This document shows positions 4,186 through 44,730 of a stretch of 57,816 nt of DNA, one piece after another (within the stretch, counting starts at the first letter, position 1; every line of letters begins with the position of its first letter). The stretch comes from Candidatus Brennerbacteria bacterium (GTDB taxonomy: Bacteria; Patescibacteriota; Minisyncoccia; UBA6257; GWB1-50-10), in contig JAZDNP010000004.1 in NCBI GenBank assembly GCA_043799565.1, positions 1 to 57,816 on the forward strand, written 5' to 3'. Position numbers and translations under genes: made by a program. The notes beneath the pieces are model-generated. The model saw nothing but the letters and a program-made list of their open reading frames with translations. It had not been told where the DNA came from and ran no database searches.

Positions 4186-4479
4186 ATGCGCCCCTATCGC
4201 AATCTAAAAATGGAGGACCTGATTGAAGAGGAATTGGGCAAGCTCATCACGCGCGAGGTATATGTGGAAGGCGCGCTTATCACCATTACCGACGTGTTCA
4301 TTACGCCCGATTTATTGCAGGCAAAGGTGAAGCTTGGTATCATCCCTAAAGCGAAGGAATTGGAGGGTTTTCTCACGGTGGAAAAGAAGTTGCCGGCACT
4401 GCGTCACGCATTAGTACGAAAAATGAACGTGAAGCCGATGCCGCGCCTCTCTTTTTCACTCGATACGAAGAAGGAATAA
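4186..4479 (+). CDS. rbfA: ribosome-binding factor A
   Basis: 97 aa, lies directly after infB. EELGKLITREV...ITITDVFITPDLLQAKV pattern is typical of RbfA. Confidence 0.8.
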   Translation: MRPYRNLKMEDLIEEELGKLITREVYVEGALITITDVFITPDLLQAKVKLGIIPKAKELEGFLTVEKKLPALRHALVRKMNVKPMPRLSFSLDTKKE

Positions 4480-4499
4480 CTCCGCGCGCTTCTCTATAA

Positions 4500-4520
4500 G
4501 AGCTGTCCAGCTCTTTTTTG
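4500..4520 (+). terminator. rho-independent terminator after rbfA
   Basis: GAGCT-GTCC-AGCTC hairpin followed by TTTTTT. Confidence 0.6.
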
Positions 4521-4564
4521 GTTTTGTAGTTGCAGGGTATTTCATTACCACTTATAATTCGGAT

Positions 4565-5299
4565 GTGGGGATTAAATACCACGTGGACGAAAAATTCTTT
4601 GACGGATGGAGTCCTATCATGGCCTACGTGTTGGGGTATTTCTATGCCGATGGGAGTATGTATCCGTCTGTACGAGGCAAATACATCGTGGTAACGAGTA
4701 TAGATCGCTCTACTATCTTGAAGATCAAAAAATGGCTCCACTCCCATCATACGGTCCGTGAAGAATCTTCGACATGGGCGAACGGCAAGAAACGATACAT
4801 ACTCAGGATAGGAAACGCCGCGCTTTATGAGGCATTGAAGTTGCGCGGACTTTACCCAAACAAATCCCTTACCATTAAAATACCGACTATTCCACGTAAA
4901 TTTCTAAAAGACTTCGTTCGAGGTTATTTCGATGGCGATGGATGCGTATACTTGTACCGATCAGCTGGAATTTCTCAACTGCTAATTCTTCGTAAGCTCT
5001 CGATCATATTTACGAGCGGAAGCAAACGTTTTCTCATAGGATTACTCGCACAATTAAAGAAAGAATTGCCATTAAACCAGAAAAACATTTATCGGGGGCA
5101 ACGATCGTTTCAGCTCCGGTTGTCCACCGGAGATAGCGTGTCGCTGTTCAAGTTTATGTATGGAGGGGTTAAATCCGATGTATTCCTCCGGAGAAAATAC
5201 GATACGTTTTCCAGATATTTTAAATTGCGACCACAGCGGATTGATGGGGAGGTGAAAGCCGTACTACAATTCATAGGCAATGGCCACGTGGCGAAGTAG
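4565..5299 (+). CDS. LAGLIDADG homing endonuclease, double-motif, free-standing
   Basis: Two motifs: YVLGYFYADGSMY and FVRGYFDGDGCVY. By eye more A/T-rich than its neighbours. The last 18 nt overlap tRNA-Cys. Confidence 0.85.
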   Translation: MGIKYHVDEKFFDGWSPIMAYVLGYFYADGSMYPSVRGKYIVVTSIDRSTILKIKKWLHSHHTVREESSTWANGKKRYILRIGNAALYEALKLRGLYPNKSLTIKIPTIPRKFLKDFVRGYFDGDGCVYLYRSAGISQLLILRKLSIIFTSGSKRFLIGLLAQLKKELPLNQKNIYRGQRSFQLRLSTGDSVSLFKFMYGGVKSDVFLRRKYDTFSRYFKLRPQRIDGEVKAVLQFIGNGHVAK

Positions 5300-5354
5300 C
5301 AAACGCGGCGGTCTGCAAAACCGCTATTCATGGGTGCAAATCCCATCGTGGCCT
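5282..5354 (+). tRNA. tRNA-Cys(GCA)
   Basis: Acceptor GGCCACG/CGTGGCC, anticodon arm GCGGT-CTGCAAA-ACCGC, discriminator T. T-loop is TGCAAAT (G at position 55). Confidence 0.85.
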
Positions 5355-5359
5355 CAAAT

Positions 5360-5557
5360 ATGAAATTCCCACCGAAAAAGAAGGATGCGTATATTCTCGA
5401 TAATACACAGGACAGAAGAATATTTCGGAAGCTGGGAAAGTTTAAATTTCACAAACTCTCTCTAAGAGAAGAGGAACTTATAAAGTTTTTATACTCTCAA
5501 CTTGAACGTGATTGGCGTACACCTCTTGAGAAATTTATCAATAACTTGCTAAAGTAA
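5360..5557 (+). CDS. small hypothetical protein (65 aa, basic, A/T-rich gene)
   Basis: ORF in the track trimmed to the ATG at 5360 (MKFPPKKKDAY...). Lies between tRNA-Cys and tRNA-Leu. No family recognised. Confidence 0.4.
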   Translation: MKFPPKKKDAYILDNTQDRRIFRKLGKFKFHKLSLREEELIKFLYSQLERDWRTPLEKFINNLLK

Positions 5558-5563
5558 GCACGG

Positions 5564-5646
5564 GTCCGGGTGGCGGAATGGTTTACGCAGGGGACTTAAA
5601 ATCCCTGACCCGAAAGGGTTTGTGGGTTCGACTCCCACCCCGGACA
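5564..5646 (+). tRNA. tRNA-Leu(TAA)
   Basis: GTCCGGGTGGCGGAATGG..., anticodon arm GGGGA-CTTAAAA-TCCCT, long variable arm, T-arm GTGGG-TTCGACT-CCCAC. Confidence 0.9.
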
Positions 5647-34322: not shown

Positions 34323-34393
34323 TCACCTCGAGCCGCTTTCATACTGGGGAAAGAGCATTTCCACATTCCCTACCAACCTTAAGGGAGGTTAGT

Positions 34394-34606
34394 ATGACAC
34401 GGCCAATTAACCCCGCCGAACGAGCCTATCGGCTCGAAGAGGTCGACAGCGTTATCGTGAAGACCGAGAACAGTAGCGAACTTGTCCGCGCGAAGGTCGT
34501 CGGATTTGACCAACGCAGGGATCATAAATCTCCGATTTTTTCCGTCGTATCAGAAGGGCAGATGAAAGGACGGACGCTCCATTGGTGGCATGTCAGTTTC
34601 ACATGA
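34394..34606 (+). CDS. small hypothetical protein (70 aa)
   Basis: Strong RBS AAGGGAGG 6 nt upstream of the ATG at 34394. A terminator follows. Confidence 0.5.
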   Translation: MTRPINPAERAYRLEEVDSVIVKTENSSELVRAKVVGFDQRRDHKSPIFSVVSEGQMKGRTLHWWHVSFT

Positions 34607-34625
34607 CGAAGGCTTTATCAACCGG

Positions 34626-34655
34626 AACGAGCGAGAAAAATTCTCGCTCGTTTTC
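34626..34655 (+). terminator. rho-independent terminator
   Basis: AACGAGCGAGAA-AAA-TTCTCGCTCGTT followed by TTCATTT. Confidence 0.7.
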
Positions 34656-34678
34656 ATTTCAATTCCCTTACCGATATG

Positions 34679-34974
34679 TTGCGGGGGCGGGAATTGAACC
34701 CGCTGCCTTCTGGTTATGCATCTCGCTACGGCTTTCGCCGCCTCCGACATAAAGTCGTGAGTTTGCGGTCTGGACTATACCTTCACCCCTAAGGGTGCTC
34801 GCCGTCTAGTCTCTACACCTTGTCGCGCGAGGCGACCTTGGCTCGGTATTACCATTTCTCGAATTGAAAAGAAGGCTTCACCGAGTTTGACGAGTGTTCC
34901 ATGAATCCTTTCGGAATCATGAGCCCAAATTGAGCCAGGCGTGCAACCGTTACACTTCCCCGCGGAAAAAGTAT
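34679..34974 (-). tRNA. initiator tRNA-fMet(CAT) interrupted by a 224-nt group I intron in the anticodon loop
   Basis: Exon 1 (34974-34943): CGCGGGGAAGTGTAACGGTTGCACGCCTGGCT. Exon 2 (34718-34679): CATAACCAGAAGGCAGCGGGTTCAATTCCCGCCCCCGCAA. C1:A72 mismatch and A73 as in bacterial initiator tRNA. The spliced loop would be CTCATAA. Confidence 0.85.
34719..34942 (-). ncRNA. group I intron (IC3-like, no ORF)
   Basis: The 5' exon ends in U and the intron ends in G. P2 is CATGATTCC-GAAA-GGATTCATG. Core strings CCGAGCCAAGG and AAGGTGTAGAGACTAGACGG...CCTTAGG...GGTATAG closely resemble the Azoarcus tRNA-Ile intron core as I recall it. Confidence 0.85.
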
Positions 34975-35054
34975 AGCAGTTCGCCTTTGAAACGCAAGCG
35001 AGAAAAAATACCAGCGGAAATGGTACAATTACCTATGTAACGTAGGTATCAAAC

Positions 35055-35735
35055 ATGCGCGTAAAGGAAAAAACCCAGGCCGTTCTTATGCGAAAAAAAG
35101 GAATGAGTATGGGAGAAATTGCAAAGAAACTCCAAGTCAGTAAGGCCTCAATAAGCCGGTGGTCTCGGGGCATAACATTATCTATCGCACAAAGGAAAAA
35201 ACTTGACACACGCCGGCGAGCTATAAGTATTGCTACACTCCGACGTGCCGCGGAAATAAAAAAGGAGGAAAAATCCGCTGAAATAAAAAAAGTTCGCGCG
35301 AACGGAAAAAAGGAGGTCGGCGCATTAAGTGATAGGGATTTTTTCATTGCCGGCCTAGCGTTGTATTGGGGAGAGGGAGGAAAAGGAGGAAAAGCGGGAG
35401 TCGAGTTCACCAATTCAGAGCCTACGAGTATTATGTTTGTCGTGCGATGGCTTAAAAAATTTTATGGAATTTCAAGAAAACATTTAAAACTGCGTGTTAC
35501 CATAAACAGAATACACGAACCGCGCATTCGCGAAGTGTTAAGATTTTGGTCGGGCCTCGTACGTGTATCGTCCTCACAATTTTCCCAAACCAGTTTTGTA
35601 AACACTAGGCAACGCCGATTGTACAAAAATTTTGCTACTCATTACGGCACATTGCGTTTGAACGTAAAAAAGAGCACCAACCTTCACCGCCGAATCATAG
35701 GGTCGATGGAGGTTCTGCAAACGATTGGTAAATAA
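35055..35735 (+). CDS. HTH + LAGLIDADG-like (single-motif) putative homing endonuclease
   Basis: N-terminal HTH MSMGEIAKKLQVSKASISRW. FFIAGLALYWGEGGK resembles a LAGLIDADG motif. A/T-rich gene sandwiched between two CAT-anticodon tRNAs. Confidence 0.55.
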   Translation: MRVKEKTQAVLMRKKGMSMGEIAKKLQVSKASISRWSRGITLSIAQRKKLDTRRRAISIATLRRAAEIKKEEKSAEIKKVRANGKKEVGALSDRDFFIAGLALYWGEGGKGGKAGVEFTNSEPTSIMFVVRWLKKFYGISRKHLKLRVTINRIHEPRIREVLRFWSGLVRVSSSQFSQTSFVNTRQRRLYKNFATHYGTLRLNVKKSTNLHRRIIGSMEVLQTIGK

Positions 35736-35778: not shown

Positions 35779-35850
35779 GCCAGGGTAGCTCAGTGGTAGA
35801 GCGAGGGACTCATAAGCCCTAGGTCGGGAGTTCGATCCTCCCCCCTGGTA
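35779..35850 (+). tRNA. elongator tRNA-Met or tRNA-Ile2 (anticodon CAT)
   Basis: GCCAGGGTAGCTCAGTGGTAGAGCG-AGGGA-CTCATAA-GCCCT, T-arm GGGAG-TTCGATC-CTCCC, G1:U72. Confidence 0.85.
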
Positions 35851-35857
35851 CTGATAT

Positions 35858-36997
35858 ATGAAAGAAATCGTCATTGACTCAGCGGAAGAAAAAAAATTAC
35901 GCGCAGAATTGGAGAAACGGACGGACCCCAATGGACTCCGTATGGCGCGGTTTCTCAATATGCCGGACCTCTCGCGACGAGAAGGCAGTCCTATTGCGGA
36001 AATCGTCGCACGCATATTGGCGAGCCCGTATTTCAAAGATCTCGACATTATCAGAACCCCCGAAATCGTGCCGGCGGACGTGAGTTTCGATCTCTTTGAT
36101 TTTCCTTCCGACCATCCCGCACGTAGCCCATCGGACACATATTATGTGAATGATGGGAACATTTTACGCACCCACACCACCATCATGTGGTATTACTACC
36201 TTTTAAATGAAGACGTGAAGGCGCGTATCGCGGTGAGCGAACCGGTGGGCTGTTTCAGCTTCGGGAAGGTGTACCGTAGGGACGAGATAGACAGGAATCA
36301 CATGAACGTGTTCCATCAGATTGACGGCTGGTATCTTGCGCCAAAATCTTTAAAGACGATAGGGATTAAGGAATTGGAAGAGGCGCTTGGCGCTATCGCG
36401 ACCGCGGTATTCGGGCCAAAGGTGAATTTTCGTTTGAACAAAGACACGTTTCCATACACCGACCCTTCGCTTGAAATGGAGGTTGAGATAAACGGAGAAT
36501 GGGTTGAGGTCGTCGGCTGTGGCGTGGTAAAAGGGAGTGTGCTCGAAAAAATGGGCGTTGACTCGTCGAACTATACCGGATGGGCGTTTGGTTTCGGGTT
36601 GGAGCGTTTGGCAATTGTGAGCATGAGCCTTCCCGACATCCGGCTTCTTTGGTCCGAGGACGAACGCGTGAAGCGTCAGCTCAAACTCGGAAACGAGTAT
36701 AAAGAGGTGAGCAAATTCCCTCCCATCACGCGCGACATCTCATTTGTGGTTGATACAGGTTTTGTGCCGAACGATTATTTTGACCTTATCCGGGACATCG
36801 GTGGCGACATCGTGGAAGAAGTAACACTTTTGGATAAGTATGAAGATGAGAAAAAGTTTGGAAGTGGTAAGATAAGCTACACCTACCGAACGGTGTATCG
36901 TTCGAACGAGCGGACGCTTACCGTGGAGGAAATCACTCCGATACAGGAGGACATAACCAAAGAAACAAAAAAGCGGTTCAATGCGCAAGTACGCTGA
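35858..36997 (+). CDS. pheS: phenylalanyl-tRNA synthetase, single-chain form: alpha-type catalytic core fused to a C-terminal FDX-ACB anticodon-binding domain
   Basis: Class II motifs FDFPSDHPARS, GKVYRRDEIDRNHMNVFHQIDGW and GWAFGFGLERLAIV. These are followed by KFPPITRDISFVVD...DLIRDIGGDIVEEVTLLDKY...SYTYRTVYRSNERTLT. Confidence 0.8.
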   Translation: MKEIVIDSAEEKKLRAELEKRTDPNGLRMARFLNMPDLSRREGSPIAEIVARILASPYFKDLDIIRTPEIVPADVSFDLFDFPSDHPARSPSDTYYVNDGNILRTHTTIMWYYYLLNEDVKARIAVSEPVGCFSFGKVYRRDEIDRNHMNVFHQIDGWYLAPKSLKTIGIKELEEALGAIATAVFGPKVNFRLNKDTFPYTDPSLEMEVEINGEWVEVVGCGVVKGSVLEKMGVDSSNYTGWAFGFGLERLAIVSMSLPDIRLLWSEDERVKRQLKLGNEYKEVSKFPPITRDISFVVDTGFVPNDYFDLIRDIGGDIVEEVTLLDKYEDEKKFGSGKISYTYRTVYRSNERTLTVEEITPIQEDITKETKKRFNAQVR

Positions 36998-42083: not shown

Positions 42084-42197
42084 ATGAATCCCGTTAGAAA
42101 TTGTGGTGCTATTCATCCTATACGCATGAACTATTCAATACTATATCCTGCGAACATCAAGCAGTCGAGCATGCCCTACTATTTCTAACGGGATGAA
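42084..42197 (+). mobile_element. ORF-less mini copy (114 bp) of the inverted-repeat element, ending on the cca start codon
   Basis: 14-bp perfect inverted repeat ATCCCGTTAGAAAT (42088-42101) / ATTTCTAACGGGAT (42181-42194). ATGAA at both ends. Confidence 0.8.
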
Positions 42198-43647
42198 GTT
42201 CAATGTTCCGAAGGAAGTGAAGACCGTTTCGGAAACGCTCCAAAAGAATGGCCACCAGGCGTATCTGGTGGGCGGGTGCCTGCGTGATCTTCTCCTTAAG
42301 CGTGAACCGAAGGACTGGGATATCGCGACGGACGCGCGTCCCGAGGAGATCCAGAAATTATTCCCGGAGAGCGTCTACGAGAACACGTTCGGCACCGTGG
42401 GTGTGAAGACGGAATCCGACGACCAGAAGCTCAAAGTGGTGGAAGTAACGACGTTCCGCATTGAAGGCCACTACACCGACCTTCGCCACCCCGATGAGGT
42501 GAAGTTCGCGAAAACGATAGATGAGGACCTCTCCCGTCGCGATTTTACGGTGAATGCAATCGCCGCGAACCTGGAAGGCGAGCTCACAGATCCGCACGAA
42601 GGTGCCGCGGACCTCAAGGCGAAGCTCATCCGCGCGGTGGGGGACCCCAAAAGGCGTTTTGAAGAGGATGCGCTCCGGCTCATGCGCGCGGTACGGCTCG
42701 CGGCGGAGCTTGGGTTTGAGATGGAGAAAAATACGAAAGAAGCCATAGCCCACCACGCCGGTCTTCTTGAAGCCATCGCAAAGGAGCGCATCCGTGATGA
42801 GTTCGTGAAATTGATAGAGAGCCCGCGTGCGGCGGAAGGTGTTGTCGCGATGGAAGACCTCGGACTCCTAAAGTTCGTTGTTCCCGAACTCCGCGAAGGA
42901 ATTGGGTGTGGCCAGAACAAGCATCATATCTACACCGTCTTTGACCACAATGTGCGTGCTTTGAATTATGCGGCGGAGAAGGAATACTCGTTTGAGGTTC
43001 GCCTCGCCTCGCTCCTTCATGACGTGGGAAAGCCGAAAACAAAGCACGGCGACGGGCCCGACTCCACCTTCTATAACCACGAGGTCGTTGGTGCGAAGAT
43101 GGCGGCAATTATCATGGACCGTTTGCGGTTCGGGAAGGATGTCACGGAACGTGTGGTGCACCTCGTGCGGCATCACCTTTTCTACTACAACGTGGGCGAG
43201 GTTTCGGAGGCGGGTGTGCGCCGCTTCATCGCGCGTGTGGGGCCGGGATACATCGGTGACCTCCTGAAGGTTCGCGAGGGAGACCGTATTGGTTCCGGCG
43301 TGCCGAAGGCATTCCCGTACAAACTTCGCCATCTCCTCTTTATGATGGAGAAGGTGAAGAAGGACCCCATTCATCCCAAGATGTTGGCGCTCAAAGGCGA
43401 TGACGTTATGAAGATTCTCGGCATCCCCGCGGGTCCTAAGATCGGCAAGATCCTCGGAGTGCTTTTAGAGGAGGTGTTGGATGACCCGAAGCGGAACACC
43501 CGCGGATATTTGGAACCGCGCGTGCGGGAGCTTGCGAACCTGAAAGATGATGAATTGGAAACGCTTGCCCGCGCGGCACGAGAGAAAAAAGAGGAATTTG
43601 AGAGTGGAGTGGAGGATGAGATGAAAAGGAGATACTACGTGAAATGA
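42193..43647 (+). CDS. cca: CCA-adding enzyme (tRNA nucleotidyltransferase with HD domain)
   Basis: YLVGGCLRDLLLKREPKDWDIAT head domain. HDVGK HD motif. 484 aa. Confidence 0.88.
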   Translation: MKFNVPKEVKTVSETLQKNGHQAYLVGGCLRDLLLKREPKDWDIATDARPEEIQKLFPESVYENTFGTVGVKTESDDQKLKVVEVTTFRIEGHYTDLRHPDEVKFAKTIDEDLSRRDFTVNAIAANLEGELTDPHEGAADLKAKLIRAVGDPKRRFEEDALRLMRAVRLAAELGFEMEKNTKEAIAHHAGLLEAIAKERIRDEFVKLIESPRAAEGVVAMEDLGLLKFVVPELREGIGCGQNKHHIYTVFDHNVRALNYAAEKEYSFEVRLASLLHDVGKPKTKHGDGPDSTFYNHEVVGAKMAAIIMDRLRFGKDVTERVVHLVRHHLFYYNVGEVSEAGVRRFIARVGPGYIGDLLKVREGDRIGSGVPKAFPYKLRHLLFMMEKVKKDPIHPKMLALKGDDVMKILGIPAGPKIGKILGVLLEEVLDDPKRNTRGYLEPRVRELANLKDDELETLARAAREKKEEFESGVEDEMKRRYYVK

Positions 43648-44594
43648 GCGTGGGTCTACGAGAGATTCTTGTTGGAGCGGTAGGCGTGTGCCTCGCGCTT
43701 CTCGCGGTCCTATGGCAGCCGAGCGCTTTTCAAGAGGCAGGCAGTTTTTTCGCCGCGCTCGTGGTTCCCGAACGCGTGACGCCCGAAACGCTCCATGCAA
43801 AGTATGAGATGCAAGCTCCCATCAATGTCCTCGTGGTGCCGGGACATGACGATGAATTCTGGGGTACGGAGTATCGGGGGCTCCGTGAGGCGGATATCAC
43901 TTTGGAGCTCGCGGGAATGGTAAGGGACAGTTTTGCGGGAGACCCGCGTTTTTCGGTCACCATCACACGGGAGGGAGGTGGGTATACGGAGGAGTTCGTG
44001 GGGCATTTCGATGTTTATTCCTCGCTCATATGGGAGTTCCGCGACTATGCGCGCACGGTTTTCGCGAGCGCGGTGTTGCGTGGTGATGTGGTCCCGAAGA
44101 CCGAGAATTTTCACGGATTCGCTTCCAGCGAAATCGCGCGGCGGCTCTACGGAGTGAATATGTGGGCGAACGACCACCGCGTAGACGTGGTACTCCACGT
44201 ACACTTCAATGATTATCCACGCGCGCGGCAAGCGAGGGCGGGGAAGTATAAAGGGTTCAGTATCTATATTCCAGAGTCGCAATTTCCGAACGCGCGGGCA
44301 AGTCGGGTAATCGCGGAAAAGGTTGTGGAGCGGCTTCGGACCGCGCTTCCGATAAGTAACTATCCGCAGGAGGCGGCCGGGGTCGTGGAAGACCAAGAGC
44401 TCATCGCGGTGGGCTCTTACGGCTCGCTCTATCCCGCGTCACTCCTCATTGAGTACGGTTACATTTATGAACCTCACTTCATGGAGCCGAATCTCCGTAC
44501 ACAACTTTTTCCATCGCTCGCGACGCTCACATACCAGGGCGTAGTGGATTTTTTTGAGGTGTCGGGGTTTAATGGAGAGCGGAACGGGGAGTAG
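43644..44594 (+). CDS. N-acetylmuramoyl-L-alanine amidase-like protein (Amidase_3-like)
   Basis: N-terminal TM. VLVVPGHDDEFWGTE and VVLHVHFND metal-ligand-like strings. ATGA overlap with cca. The stop codon lies inside tRNA-Pro. Confidence 0.5.
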   Translation: MSVGLREILVGAVGVCLALLAVLWQPSAFQEAGSFFAALVVPERVTPETLHAKYEMQAPINVLVVPGHDDEFWGTEYRGLREADITLELAGMVRDSFAGDPRFSVTITREGGGYTEEFVGHFDVYSSLIWEFRDYARTVFASAVLRGDVVPKTENFHGFASSEIARRLYGVNMWANDHRVDVVLHVHFNDYPRARQARAGKYKGFSIYIPESQFPNARASRVIAEKVVERLRTALPISNYPQEAAGVVEDQELIAVGSYGSLYPASLLIEYGYIYEPHFMEPNLRTQLFPSLATLTYQGVVDFFEVSGFNGERNGE

Positions 44595-44655
44595 TATAGT
44601 GGCAGTACGCGGGGTTCGGGACTCCGTAGTCCGGGTTCGATTCCCGGCTCCCCGA
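44585..44655 (+). tRNA. tRNA-Pro(CGG)
   Basis: CGGGGAGTAGTATAGTGGCAGTACG-CGGGG-TTCGGGA-CTCCG, T-arm CCGGG-TTCGATT-CCCGG. Confidence 0.88.
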
Positions 44656-44656
44656 C

Positions 44657-44730
44657 GGGCCTGTAGTAAAGTGGCATTACGCGGCATTCGCATTGCCGAG
44701 TCGGGAGTCCGATTCTCCCCAGGTCCACCA
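44657..44730 (+). tRNA. tRNA-Ala(CGC), CCA encoded
   Basis: GGGCCTG acceptor with G3:U70, anticodon arm CGGCA-TTCGCAT-TGCCG. T-arm GGGAG-TCCGATT-CTCCC (C at position 55). 3' ACCA. Confidence 0.85.

Follow-up and report, generated by a model that had tools for sequence, protein, structure and literature searches.

Which gene provides the initiator transfer RNA (tRNA) in a stretch of DNA where a routine scan finds twelve tRNAs and misses the one in question? The question is raised by a window of 57,816 nucleotides (nt), the whole stretch of DNA analysed here (58 kb; contig JAZDNP010000004.1 of assembly GCA_043799565.1, from a Candidatus Brennerbacteria bacterium of the Patescibacteria), in which a sequence-only reading had placed a group I intron inside the anticodon loop of an initiator tRNA gene on the minus strand. 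We are highly confident that this is the initiator-type tRNA(CAU) gene of the lineage, split between U33 and C34 by a compact IC3 group I intron that lacks an open reading frame (ORF) and is of the kind called fMet.2Ug. An IC3 intron is placed between nt 33 and 34 because of a covariance-model match, a covarying structure, intronless syntenic orthologs, and introns at the same site in two relatives, L128 and L130 (such handles denote the loci compared). The coordinates of the exons, the intron with its helices and the neighbouring features are collected in Table 1.

Table 1 Features of the split tRNA(CAU) locus and its surroundings in the 58-kb window
Feature	Position	Strand	Basis
5' exon CGCGGGGAAGTGTAACGGTTGCACGCCTGGCT (read 34964..34933), tRNA(CAU) nt 1-33: acceptor 5' strand, D arm, anticodon-stem 5' strand, C32, U33	34933..34964	minus	exact string match; aligns to uninterrupted L001, L002 and L005 orthologs
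3' exon CATAACCAGAAGGCAGCGGGTTCAATTCCCGCCCCCGCAA (read 34718..34679), tRNA(CAU) nt 34-73: CAU anticodon, anticodon-stem 3' strand, variable loop, T arm, acceptor 3' strand, A73	34679..34718	minus	string match and ortholog alignment
Group I intron, IC3-type, 214 nt, without ORF; starts CAAUUU, terminal G (omega G) at 34719	34719..34932	minus	RF00028 at 50.2 bits, covarying structure, L128 and L130 homologs
P1: exon GGCU and intron CA (34936..34931) with internal guide UGGGCU (34927..34922); U33·G wobble at the 5' splice site, 3-nt loop	34922..34936	minus	read from the sequence
P2 hairpin, 9 base pairs, one U·U mismatch, GAAA tetraloop	34900..34921	minus	RNAfold
P3 (34894..34889 with 34803..34798), enclosing P4 (34884..34879 with 34848..34843), P5/P5a (34875..34852) and P6/P6a (34842..34817)	34798..34894	minus	ten-intron alignment
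P7 pseudoknot: G-A-GACUA (34813..34807) with UAGUCC (34777..34772); encloses P8 (34797..34784, UUAG loop) and J8/7 AAGGUA	34772..34813	minus	alignment and Azoarcus-type core identity
P9 (partly mismatched here), P9a hairpin, P9b hairpin GCGGC-GAAA-GCCGU	34720..34769	minus	alignment; layout as in published tRNA-intron seeds
Possible promoter (TTGCGT and TATACT, spaced by 16 nt), its end 5 nt upstream of tRNA position 1	34970..34997	minus	by eye only; conserved upstream in L128 and L130
226-aa ORF, N-terminal helix-turn-helix (HTH), uncharacterised C-terminal domain with GLALYWGEGxK; candidate mobile homing-endonuclease-like gene	35055..35735	plus, divergent from the tRNA gene	profile, synteny and model evidence
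Second tRNA(CAU), of elongator type with a paired G1·U72; conserved as partner of the initiator gene	35779..35851	plus	tRNA scan and comparison

Both tRNA halves were recovered verbatim on the minus strand by string match, just as they had been read. When the exons are joined they form 72 nt that ARAGORN calls as tRNA-Met(CAT) with the loop CUCAUAA, in agreement with the predicted loop CTCATAA and anticodon CAT, and the C1:A72 mismatch with A73, also noticed earlier, is seen in the joined exons. The insert does follow a U (U33) and end in a G (34719). Its dimensions had to be corrected, since it measures 214 nt (34932..34719) instead of the 224 nt first given, and the element starts at 34964 instead of 34974. 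CCA is not encoded at the end of the 3' exon. On the unspliced region, ARAGORN with its intron mode switched on called no tRNA.

The exact position of the junction was obtained from the relatives. The closest relatives by PheRS are syntenic with the window, the order being ligase, GatC, GatA and further genes, then C39 peptidase, NlpC/P60, a minus-strand and then a plus-strand tRNA(CAT), PheRS and RecG. The minus-strand tRNA at the syntenic site is continuous in L001, L002 and L005, each of which reads ...GGCUCAUAACC... there. The L001 and L002 tRNAs are nearly base-for-base equal to the joined halves of the window while that of L005 is more diverged, and across the join all three read ...GGCTCATAACC.... 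Given these uninterrupted syntenic orthologs, the junction must be GGCU/CAUAACC, between U33 and C34. L128 and L130 have a homologous intron at the identical position, with 93% and 85% identity to the window intron, respectively.

The sequence-only reading had proposed a scan with the group I covariance model as a check. The Rfam model RF00028 matches 34942..34755 on the minus strand with 50.2 bits over model positions 1-253 (E 8e-10 for the whole window), the gathering score of the model being 50; the homologous introns of L130, L128 and L071 score 54, 52 and 60 bits. Helices P1 to P9b were assigned by hand after the published seed alignment of bacterial tRNA introns, and a complete, covarying IC3-type fold from P1 to P9b can be drawn for the insert. 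The pairings at the splice sites can both be drawn, as the earlier reading required, with P1 including its U·G pair and P10 of 2-4 base pairs. In P1, all ten aligned introns keep the U·G, C:G and G:C pairs unchanged, U33·G16 being the wobble at the splice site. In P10, the guide bases U14 and G15, which are those pairing with the intron's own first CA, can pair with the CA of the 3' exon to give two contiguous pairs, or four with one mismatch. Such weakness of P10 is common in introns whose exons are aligned by the tRNA body.

To evaluate the fold we used an alignment (A4) of ten introns, namely those of the window, L128 and L130 together with seven compact introns from other phyla. With the hand-drawn structure, 90.7% of the pair cells in A4 are paired, compared with 35-40% after sliding the partners by 1-3 columns; both sides have changed in 27 pairs, and none of 500 shuffles reached the observed covariation score. 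Helices P3, P4, P6a and P8 are all 100% paired in the ten introns, and in the order named they have 3, 1, 5 and 3 pairs in which both sides changed in a compensatory way, 12 pairs together. P7, the guanosine-binding helix, is likewise 100% paired and nearly invariant, with variation on one side only, and its string is identical to that of the Azoarcus-type core. P9a and P9b are 98-100% paired, again with compensatory changes. What had been described as an extra 3' extension of about 60 nt turned out to be the usual P9/P9a/P9b region with its GCGAAAGC hairpin, which is present in most published bacterial tRNA intron seeds and in the relatives. The P2-like hairpin with a GAAA loop was found in the insert as described. 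MAFFT misaligns P2 between subgroups (52% paired), and it was therefore judged from single-sequence folds, which give a hairpin in each intron; in L128 and L130 these folds show a compensatory change from G:C to A:U and a repair of the U·U mismatch to G·U.

The single-sequence and close-range comparisons point the same way. RNAfold folds the region better than 200 of 200 shuffles (z -3.84), and its centroid alone recovers P2, P3, P4, P5, P6a, P8, P9a and P9b. Seven paired positions vary among the introns of the window, L128 and L130, of which four changed on both sides and kept their pairing, and P2, P5a, P9a and P9b stay hairpins in all three. In L128, a 20-nt insertion lengthens P8 into a perfect hairpin, a peripheral expansion in an otherwise 93%-identical intron.

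Several observations weigh against our conclusion. On the intron side, the Rfam score exceeds the gathering threshold by only 0.2 bits and is thus borderline, P10 has only two contiguous pairs, P9 is imperfect in the window copy (C·A and A·G in the register of the relatives), and P2 contains a U·U mismatch. On the tRNA side, the three consecutive G:C pairs at 29-31/39-41 expected of an initiator are not present, the pairs being U29:A41, G30:C40 and G31:C39, and A11:U24 is replaced by U11:A24, with A8 in place of U8. The borderline score and the mismatches in P2 and P9 would also suit a pseudogene, in which a dead or decaying intron had inactivated a redundant tRNA(CAU) copy while an intact initiator gene lay outside the 58-kb window, which is what the search for further initiator genes covered. 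We regard such a pseudogene as very improbable. The relatives have a single initiator-type gene, situated exactly at this locus, and the exons of the split gene have stayed almost the same as in the functional orthologs without intron. No variation is seen in the catalytic core, and the helices keep pairing through compensatory changes among the window, L128 and L130. Moreover, Patescibacterial genomes are small, and the 13 tRNA genes of the window carry 12 distinct anticodons, with no duplicated gene and with two CAT genes of different types.

Given the intact core and the structure-preserving substitutions, the intron is predicted to be catalytically active, and the following pathway can be proposed, which is the standard two-step transesterification initiated by guanosine. 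The split gene would be transcribed from the minus strand; a sigma-70 consensus scan scored the TTGCGT/TATACT motif upstream of the tRNA below threshold. The intron would then fold into P1-P9b, its GAAA tetraloops L2 and L9b probably clamping the core through contacts like those of the Azoarcus ribozyme. An exogenous guanosine bound in P7 would attack the phosphate after U33, itself held in the U·G wobble of P1, after which the terminal G (34719) would take over the binding site from the exogenous guanosine. The freed 3'-OH of U33 would attack the 3' splice site, with the short P10 and the tRNA body holding the exons, and the 214-nt intron and a continuous 72-nt tRNA would be released, the latter to undergo end trimming and CCA addition. 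A gene for the CCA-adding enzyme is present at 42193..43647.

Is the split tRNA indeed the initiator? With a CAU anticodon, C1 opposite A72 and the discriminator A73, it is best described as "initiator-type" and not as a canonical tRNA-fMet, and a function in initiation is probable from these features. The claim that its anticodon stem has two of the usual three G:C pairs proved accurate, as did the claim that it is the only initiator-type tRNA in the window, the other CAT tRNA having a paired 1:72. The absence of the three-G:C and A11:U24 hallmarks, together with three G:C pairs at positions 28-30 of the neighbouring CAT tRNA, could be taken to mean that the roles are reversed, the split tRNA being an elongator tRNA-Met or a lysidine-type tRNA-Ile2 and its neighbour the initiator. 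We consider this reversal most unlikely. C1 opposite A72 and A73 occur in the split tRNA only, and the neighbour has a paired G1·U72. U11:A24 and A8 are common to the intronless L001 and L002 orthologs, and the intronless orthologs also lack the three G:C pairs. Although the distant orthologs of L132 and L133 are mismatched at 1:72 and canonical in the D stem (A11:U24), they share U29:A41, and the stem with two G:C pairs is therefore a trait of the initiator in this phylum. In addition, a tRNA-Ile(UAU) is encoded in a relative, which argues against a need for an Ile2(CAU).

Two further observations concern these tRNAs. The initiator-type tRNAs of the Patescibacteria compared (window, L001, L002, L005, L132, L133, L135 and L138) break the three-G:C rule with U29:A41, some of the stems being weaker still. 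The elongator-type tRNA(CAU) of the window (Met or Ile2) has an A31/G39 mismatch at the bottom of its anticodon stem, and in the elongator-type tRNA(CAU) of L005 a joint change affects positions 32 and 39 (C/G to G/C).

The initiator-type gene of this lineage is thus interrupted by an intron of the class fMet.2Ug, with the setting CU/c...g/CAUAA; the instance and the host lineage are new, and the kind is not. fMet.2Ug is one of the four classical classes of bacterial tRNA introns, all of which are IC3 (Williams 2020, 10.1101/2020.01.27.920355). The tRNA-fMet intron was first found in cyanobacteria, according to the passage of PMC8450103 that cites Biniszkiewicz et al. 1994 and Paquin et al. 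1997. The kind has been known since 1994, fMet.2Ug introns are a recognised cause of "missing" fMet genes in tRNAscan-SE output, and group I introns had previously been noted in tRNAs of complete genomes of the candidate phyla radiation. Compared with the seed rows and the relatives, the window intron has the core and architecture of IC3, that is, no P5abc, a GAAA L2, and a P9 with a GAAA-capped hairpin. The four core strings described earlier as close to Azoarcus are all present and agree with the Azoarcus-type seed row at 15/18, 10/11, 20/20 and 15/16 positions.

The window intron can be compared with three sets of known or newly collected introns. The cyanobacterial tRNA-fMet introns (Synechocystis PCC 6803, Scytonema, Dermocarpa and Gloeobacter) share with it the host gene, the insertion point CU/c...g/CAUAA and an IC3 structure with P9a and a GAAA-capped P9b, and the seed Tpc1.fMet.2Ug is 76% identical to it; unlike that class, the window intron lies in a Patescibacterium, is compact (214 nt) and ORF-less, and has a non-canonical exon tRNA. 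The IC3 intron of the Azoarcus pre-tRNA-Ile(CAU) (Aol6.Ile2.5Ug; 72% identity over 182 aligned nt) has a nearly identical P3-P8 core, 20/20 for AAGGUGUAGAGACUAGACGG, and also a GAAA L2. However, it sits after nt 36 of another tRNA whereas the window intron follows nt 33, and it has a single short P9 hairpin in place of P9, P9a and P9b. Nearest outside the lineage among the matches listed in the scan below are introns from metagenome-assembled genomes (MAGs) of Omnitrophota and Planctomycetia (L105, L090, L062 and L102), with 71-74% identity over 137-178 nt. These occupy the same site and are also ORF-less (193-221 nt), but differ in a shorter P5 without P5a, another P2 and a canonical initiator exon; no HTH ORF was found within 8 kb of these four introns.

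The spread of such introns was assessed by scanning one genome per species for the initiator 3' half CATAACC...GGTTCRAWTCC preceded by G, which gave at least 120 loci. Among the matches listed, 98 have a matching 5' half, and nearly all of these 98 fMet introns start with CA or CG; the hosts, from about ten phyla, are Cyanobacteria, Nitrospirota, Omnitrophota, Acidobacteriota, Planctomycetes, Rhodothermales, Chloroflexi, Proteobacteria and two Patescibacteria; and the introns form two size groups of 193-345 nt and 630-722 nt, the larger ones bearing ORFs; those recovered are I-Ssp6803I-like in all copies (630-695 nt) other than L051. The intron ORF of L071, for instance, matches PF11645 (PD-(D/E)XK). 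No intron-encoded PD-(D/E)XK endonuclease of the I-Ssp6803I type is present in the window intron, whose 214 nt leave no space for one; such an endonuclease is a trait of the mobile subset and does not define the fMet.2Ug class. Some of the scan matches, as in L026, L031 and L050 of the Acidobacteriota, are not introns, being 37-nt duplications of the initiator 3' half or insertions that start with CATAACC; the insertions of L050 (238 nt) and L031 (260 nt) resemble partial duplications.

The intron is accompanied by a second element. The two CAT tRNAs are 814 bp apart in the window versus about 65-155 bp in L001, L002 and L005, and the extra DNA is the 226-aa ORF with an N-terminal HTH. Homologs of the ORF (68% identity) lie at the same place in L128 and L130, both of which bear the intron, and the ORF is absent at the locus in L001, L002 and L005, all of which are without it. 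In a neighbour-joining tree of GatA, PheRS and RecG the window stands next to L001, and at least three joint gains or losses of intron and ORF must therefore be assumed. Patchy in close relatives and coming and going with the neighbouring HTH ORF, the intron appears to be a mobile or recently exchanged element. Compared with the window and L130, L128 has the whole module (4400..5600; split tRNA-fMet with its intron, HTH ORF and tRNA-Met) in the opposite orientation with respect to the flanking genes.

The ORF belongs to a large family. Its closest relative is from Candidatus Jorgensenbacteria, and the family comprises 1139 clusters at E<=0.001, all named ones being Patescibacterial, with the invariant residues Y104, E107, G108, N120, W165, F176 and G198. 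Nine ORF loci were inspected (window, L128, L130, L132, L133, L135, L137, L138 and L140). In all nine the ORF lies directly upstream of an elongator tRNA-Met gene, which it often overlaps, and in eight a tRNA-fMet lies on its other side, five times with an intron (of two intron subtypes) and three times without; L140, the ninth, begins too near a contig end to show the tRNA-fMet side. The C-terminal domain is homologous to an ORF that lies antisense inside the tRNA-fMet intron of the Patescibacterium L051 (5499..5954), as detected by hhalign (98%, E 1e-13) and also by tblastn via other family members; a direct BLASTP comparison between the window ORF and that of L051 gave no significant match (E 0.79).

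Searches for a catalytic fold gave the following results. Searches of Pfam, NCBIfam and PHROGs with the ORF returned HTH matches only and nothing credible for the C-terminal domain. In the PDB, the best match of the ORF profile is catalytic motif 2 of I-DmoI, with a marginal E of 0.007, and there was no match to the Pfam LAGLIDADG family. This marginal match and the GLALYWGEGxK motif, in which E107 and G108 are invariant, hint at a LAGLIDADG-like nuclease. An AlphaFold2 model (mean predicted local distance difference test score, pLDDT, 93.4) found nothing at E<=0.001 when compared by Foldseek with the PDB and the viral models of BFVD; the PDB top 50 contain no LAGLIDADG structure, and the BFVD list contains one LAGLIDADG protein at rank 19 (E 0.73). 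A LAGLIDADG enzyme, first assigned by eye, was rejected, since the order of elements is beta-alpha-beta-alpha-beta-beta and not alpha-beta-beta-alpha-beta-beta-alpha and there is no significant structural neighbour. We therefore refer to the ORF as a candidate for a mobile gene resembling those of homing endonucleases and do not class it as a LAGLIDADG enzyme; the evidence for a nuclease is weak. In the functional sense it resembles a homing-endonuclease gene, being patchy at a fixed site in close relatives and having homologs inside self-splicing introns.

What, then, does the ORF do? It may be an ordinary HTH-type transcription factor that acts on the tRNA cluster and has no part in intron mobility, and we give this a substantial chance, somewhat short of even: HTH families are its sole Pfam and NCBIfam matches, it adjoins uninterrupted tRNA-fMet genes in L132, L133 and L137, and Foldseek yields no nuclease fold. 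The joint absence of ORF and intron from the closest relatives, the homology of its C-terminal domain to the ORF inside the L051 tRNA-fMet group I intron, and the I-DmoI catalytic motif as its best sequence match in the PDB (E 0.007) are harder to accommodate with a regulator. A further, tentative proposal, which we think rather unlikely as it stands, is that the intron and the HTH ORF belong together as a single mobile unit. In that case the ORF would be a free-standing gene for a homing endonuclease of an undescribed family, which homes at the tRNA-fMet/tRNA-Met locus and takes the intron with it through co-conversion or collaborative homing.

In phages, introns that have no ORF of their own are described as being mobilised by endonuclease genes that stand free of them, through collaborative or trans homing (PMC3984707), as with T4 mobE and I-TevIII (PMC2790892). 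The window is similar in that a mobile-looking ORF lies no more than about 100 bp from an ORF-less intron, with joint gain and loss and with the domain found in an intron in L051; it is different in that the ORF is a candidate nuclease only and also stands beside uninterrupted genes, and in that the host is a bacterial chromosome. The strict form of collaborative homing, in which the target of the ORF is the intron insertion site, is weakened by L132 and L133, where the ORF lies beside an uninterrupted gene with the same UGGCUCAUAACCA; in L137 the ORF also lies beside an uninterrupted tRNA-fMet, although the anticodon arm differs there. Given that the ORF occurs beside uninterrupted genes with the same anticodon-loop sequence, a target at the insertion site is unlikely, and co-conversion from a nearby cut is more economical. 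If the mobile unit is real, L051, with the domain antisense inside its tRNA-fMet intron, would represent the stage at which "the endonuclease has invaded the intron" in the proposed origin of mobile group I introns.

Just upstream of the ORF start, the spacer 35000..35054 contains inverted repeats, TACCA-N7-TGGTA overlapping a TACAAT box and TACCTA-N7-TAGGTA covering the likely ribosome-binding site, and it is 81% conserved with L128 and L130. These repeats may be operator or translational-control elements.

Some other features of the window and of the compared loci were also recorded. The window encodes an NAD-ligase, GatA, RecG, DnaB, CysRS, type IV pilus ATPases and a one-piece PheRS. Its host is a bacterium of the candidate phyla radiation with a small genome and not a phage. 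The single-chain PheRS (35858..36997, plus strand, 379 aa) fuses a class II catalytic core to an FDX-ACB anticodon-binding domain, an architecture known from mitochondria. It has more than 6500 relatives at E<=1e-20, of which those named by source are all Patescibacteria or unclassified bacterial MAGs; its best named relatives are from Minisyncoccia and Candidatus Brennerbacteria (Patescibacteria). Between the 3' end of the split tRNA and the start of NlpC/P60 lies a non-coding spacer of 356 bp (34323..34678), which in the relatives measures at most about a dozen bases and has no match among the sequences compared; it contains a palindrome (34624..34654) with a 14-bp stem that scores as a plus-strand terminator. 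The genes of tRNA-Pro(CGG) and tRNA-Ala(CGC) (44585..44730, plus strand) are separated by zero or one base, and none of the window's tRNA genes that were checked encodes CCA. In the Moranbacteria locus L133, a LOOT RNA (RF03000, 62 bits; 5318..5454, minus strand) adjoins a large serine recombinase.

For annotation, the consequence is that standard tRNA finders miss the split initiator gene, and the genome would seem to have no initiator tRNA. For the organism, the intron would make translation initiation in a bacterium with a minimal genome dependent on a ribozyme. Taken alone, the finding gives a well-known intron class a further host and adds little; the adjacent ORF family is the more interesting part and the one worth following up. 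If the ORF proves to be a nuclease, it would constitute a widespread new family of homing endonucleases, and the states in which it is found, namely no element, ORF alone, ORF with intron, and ORF inside the intron, would form a series that bears on the origin of mobile group I introns.

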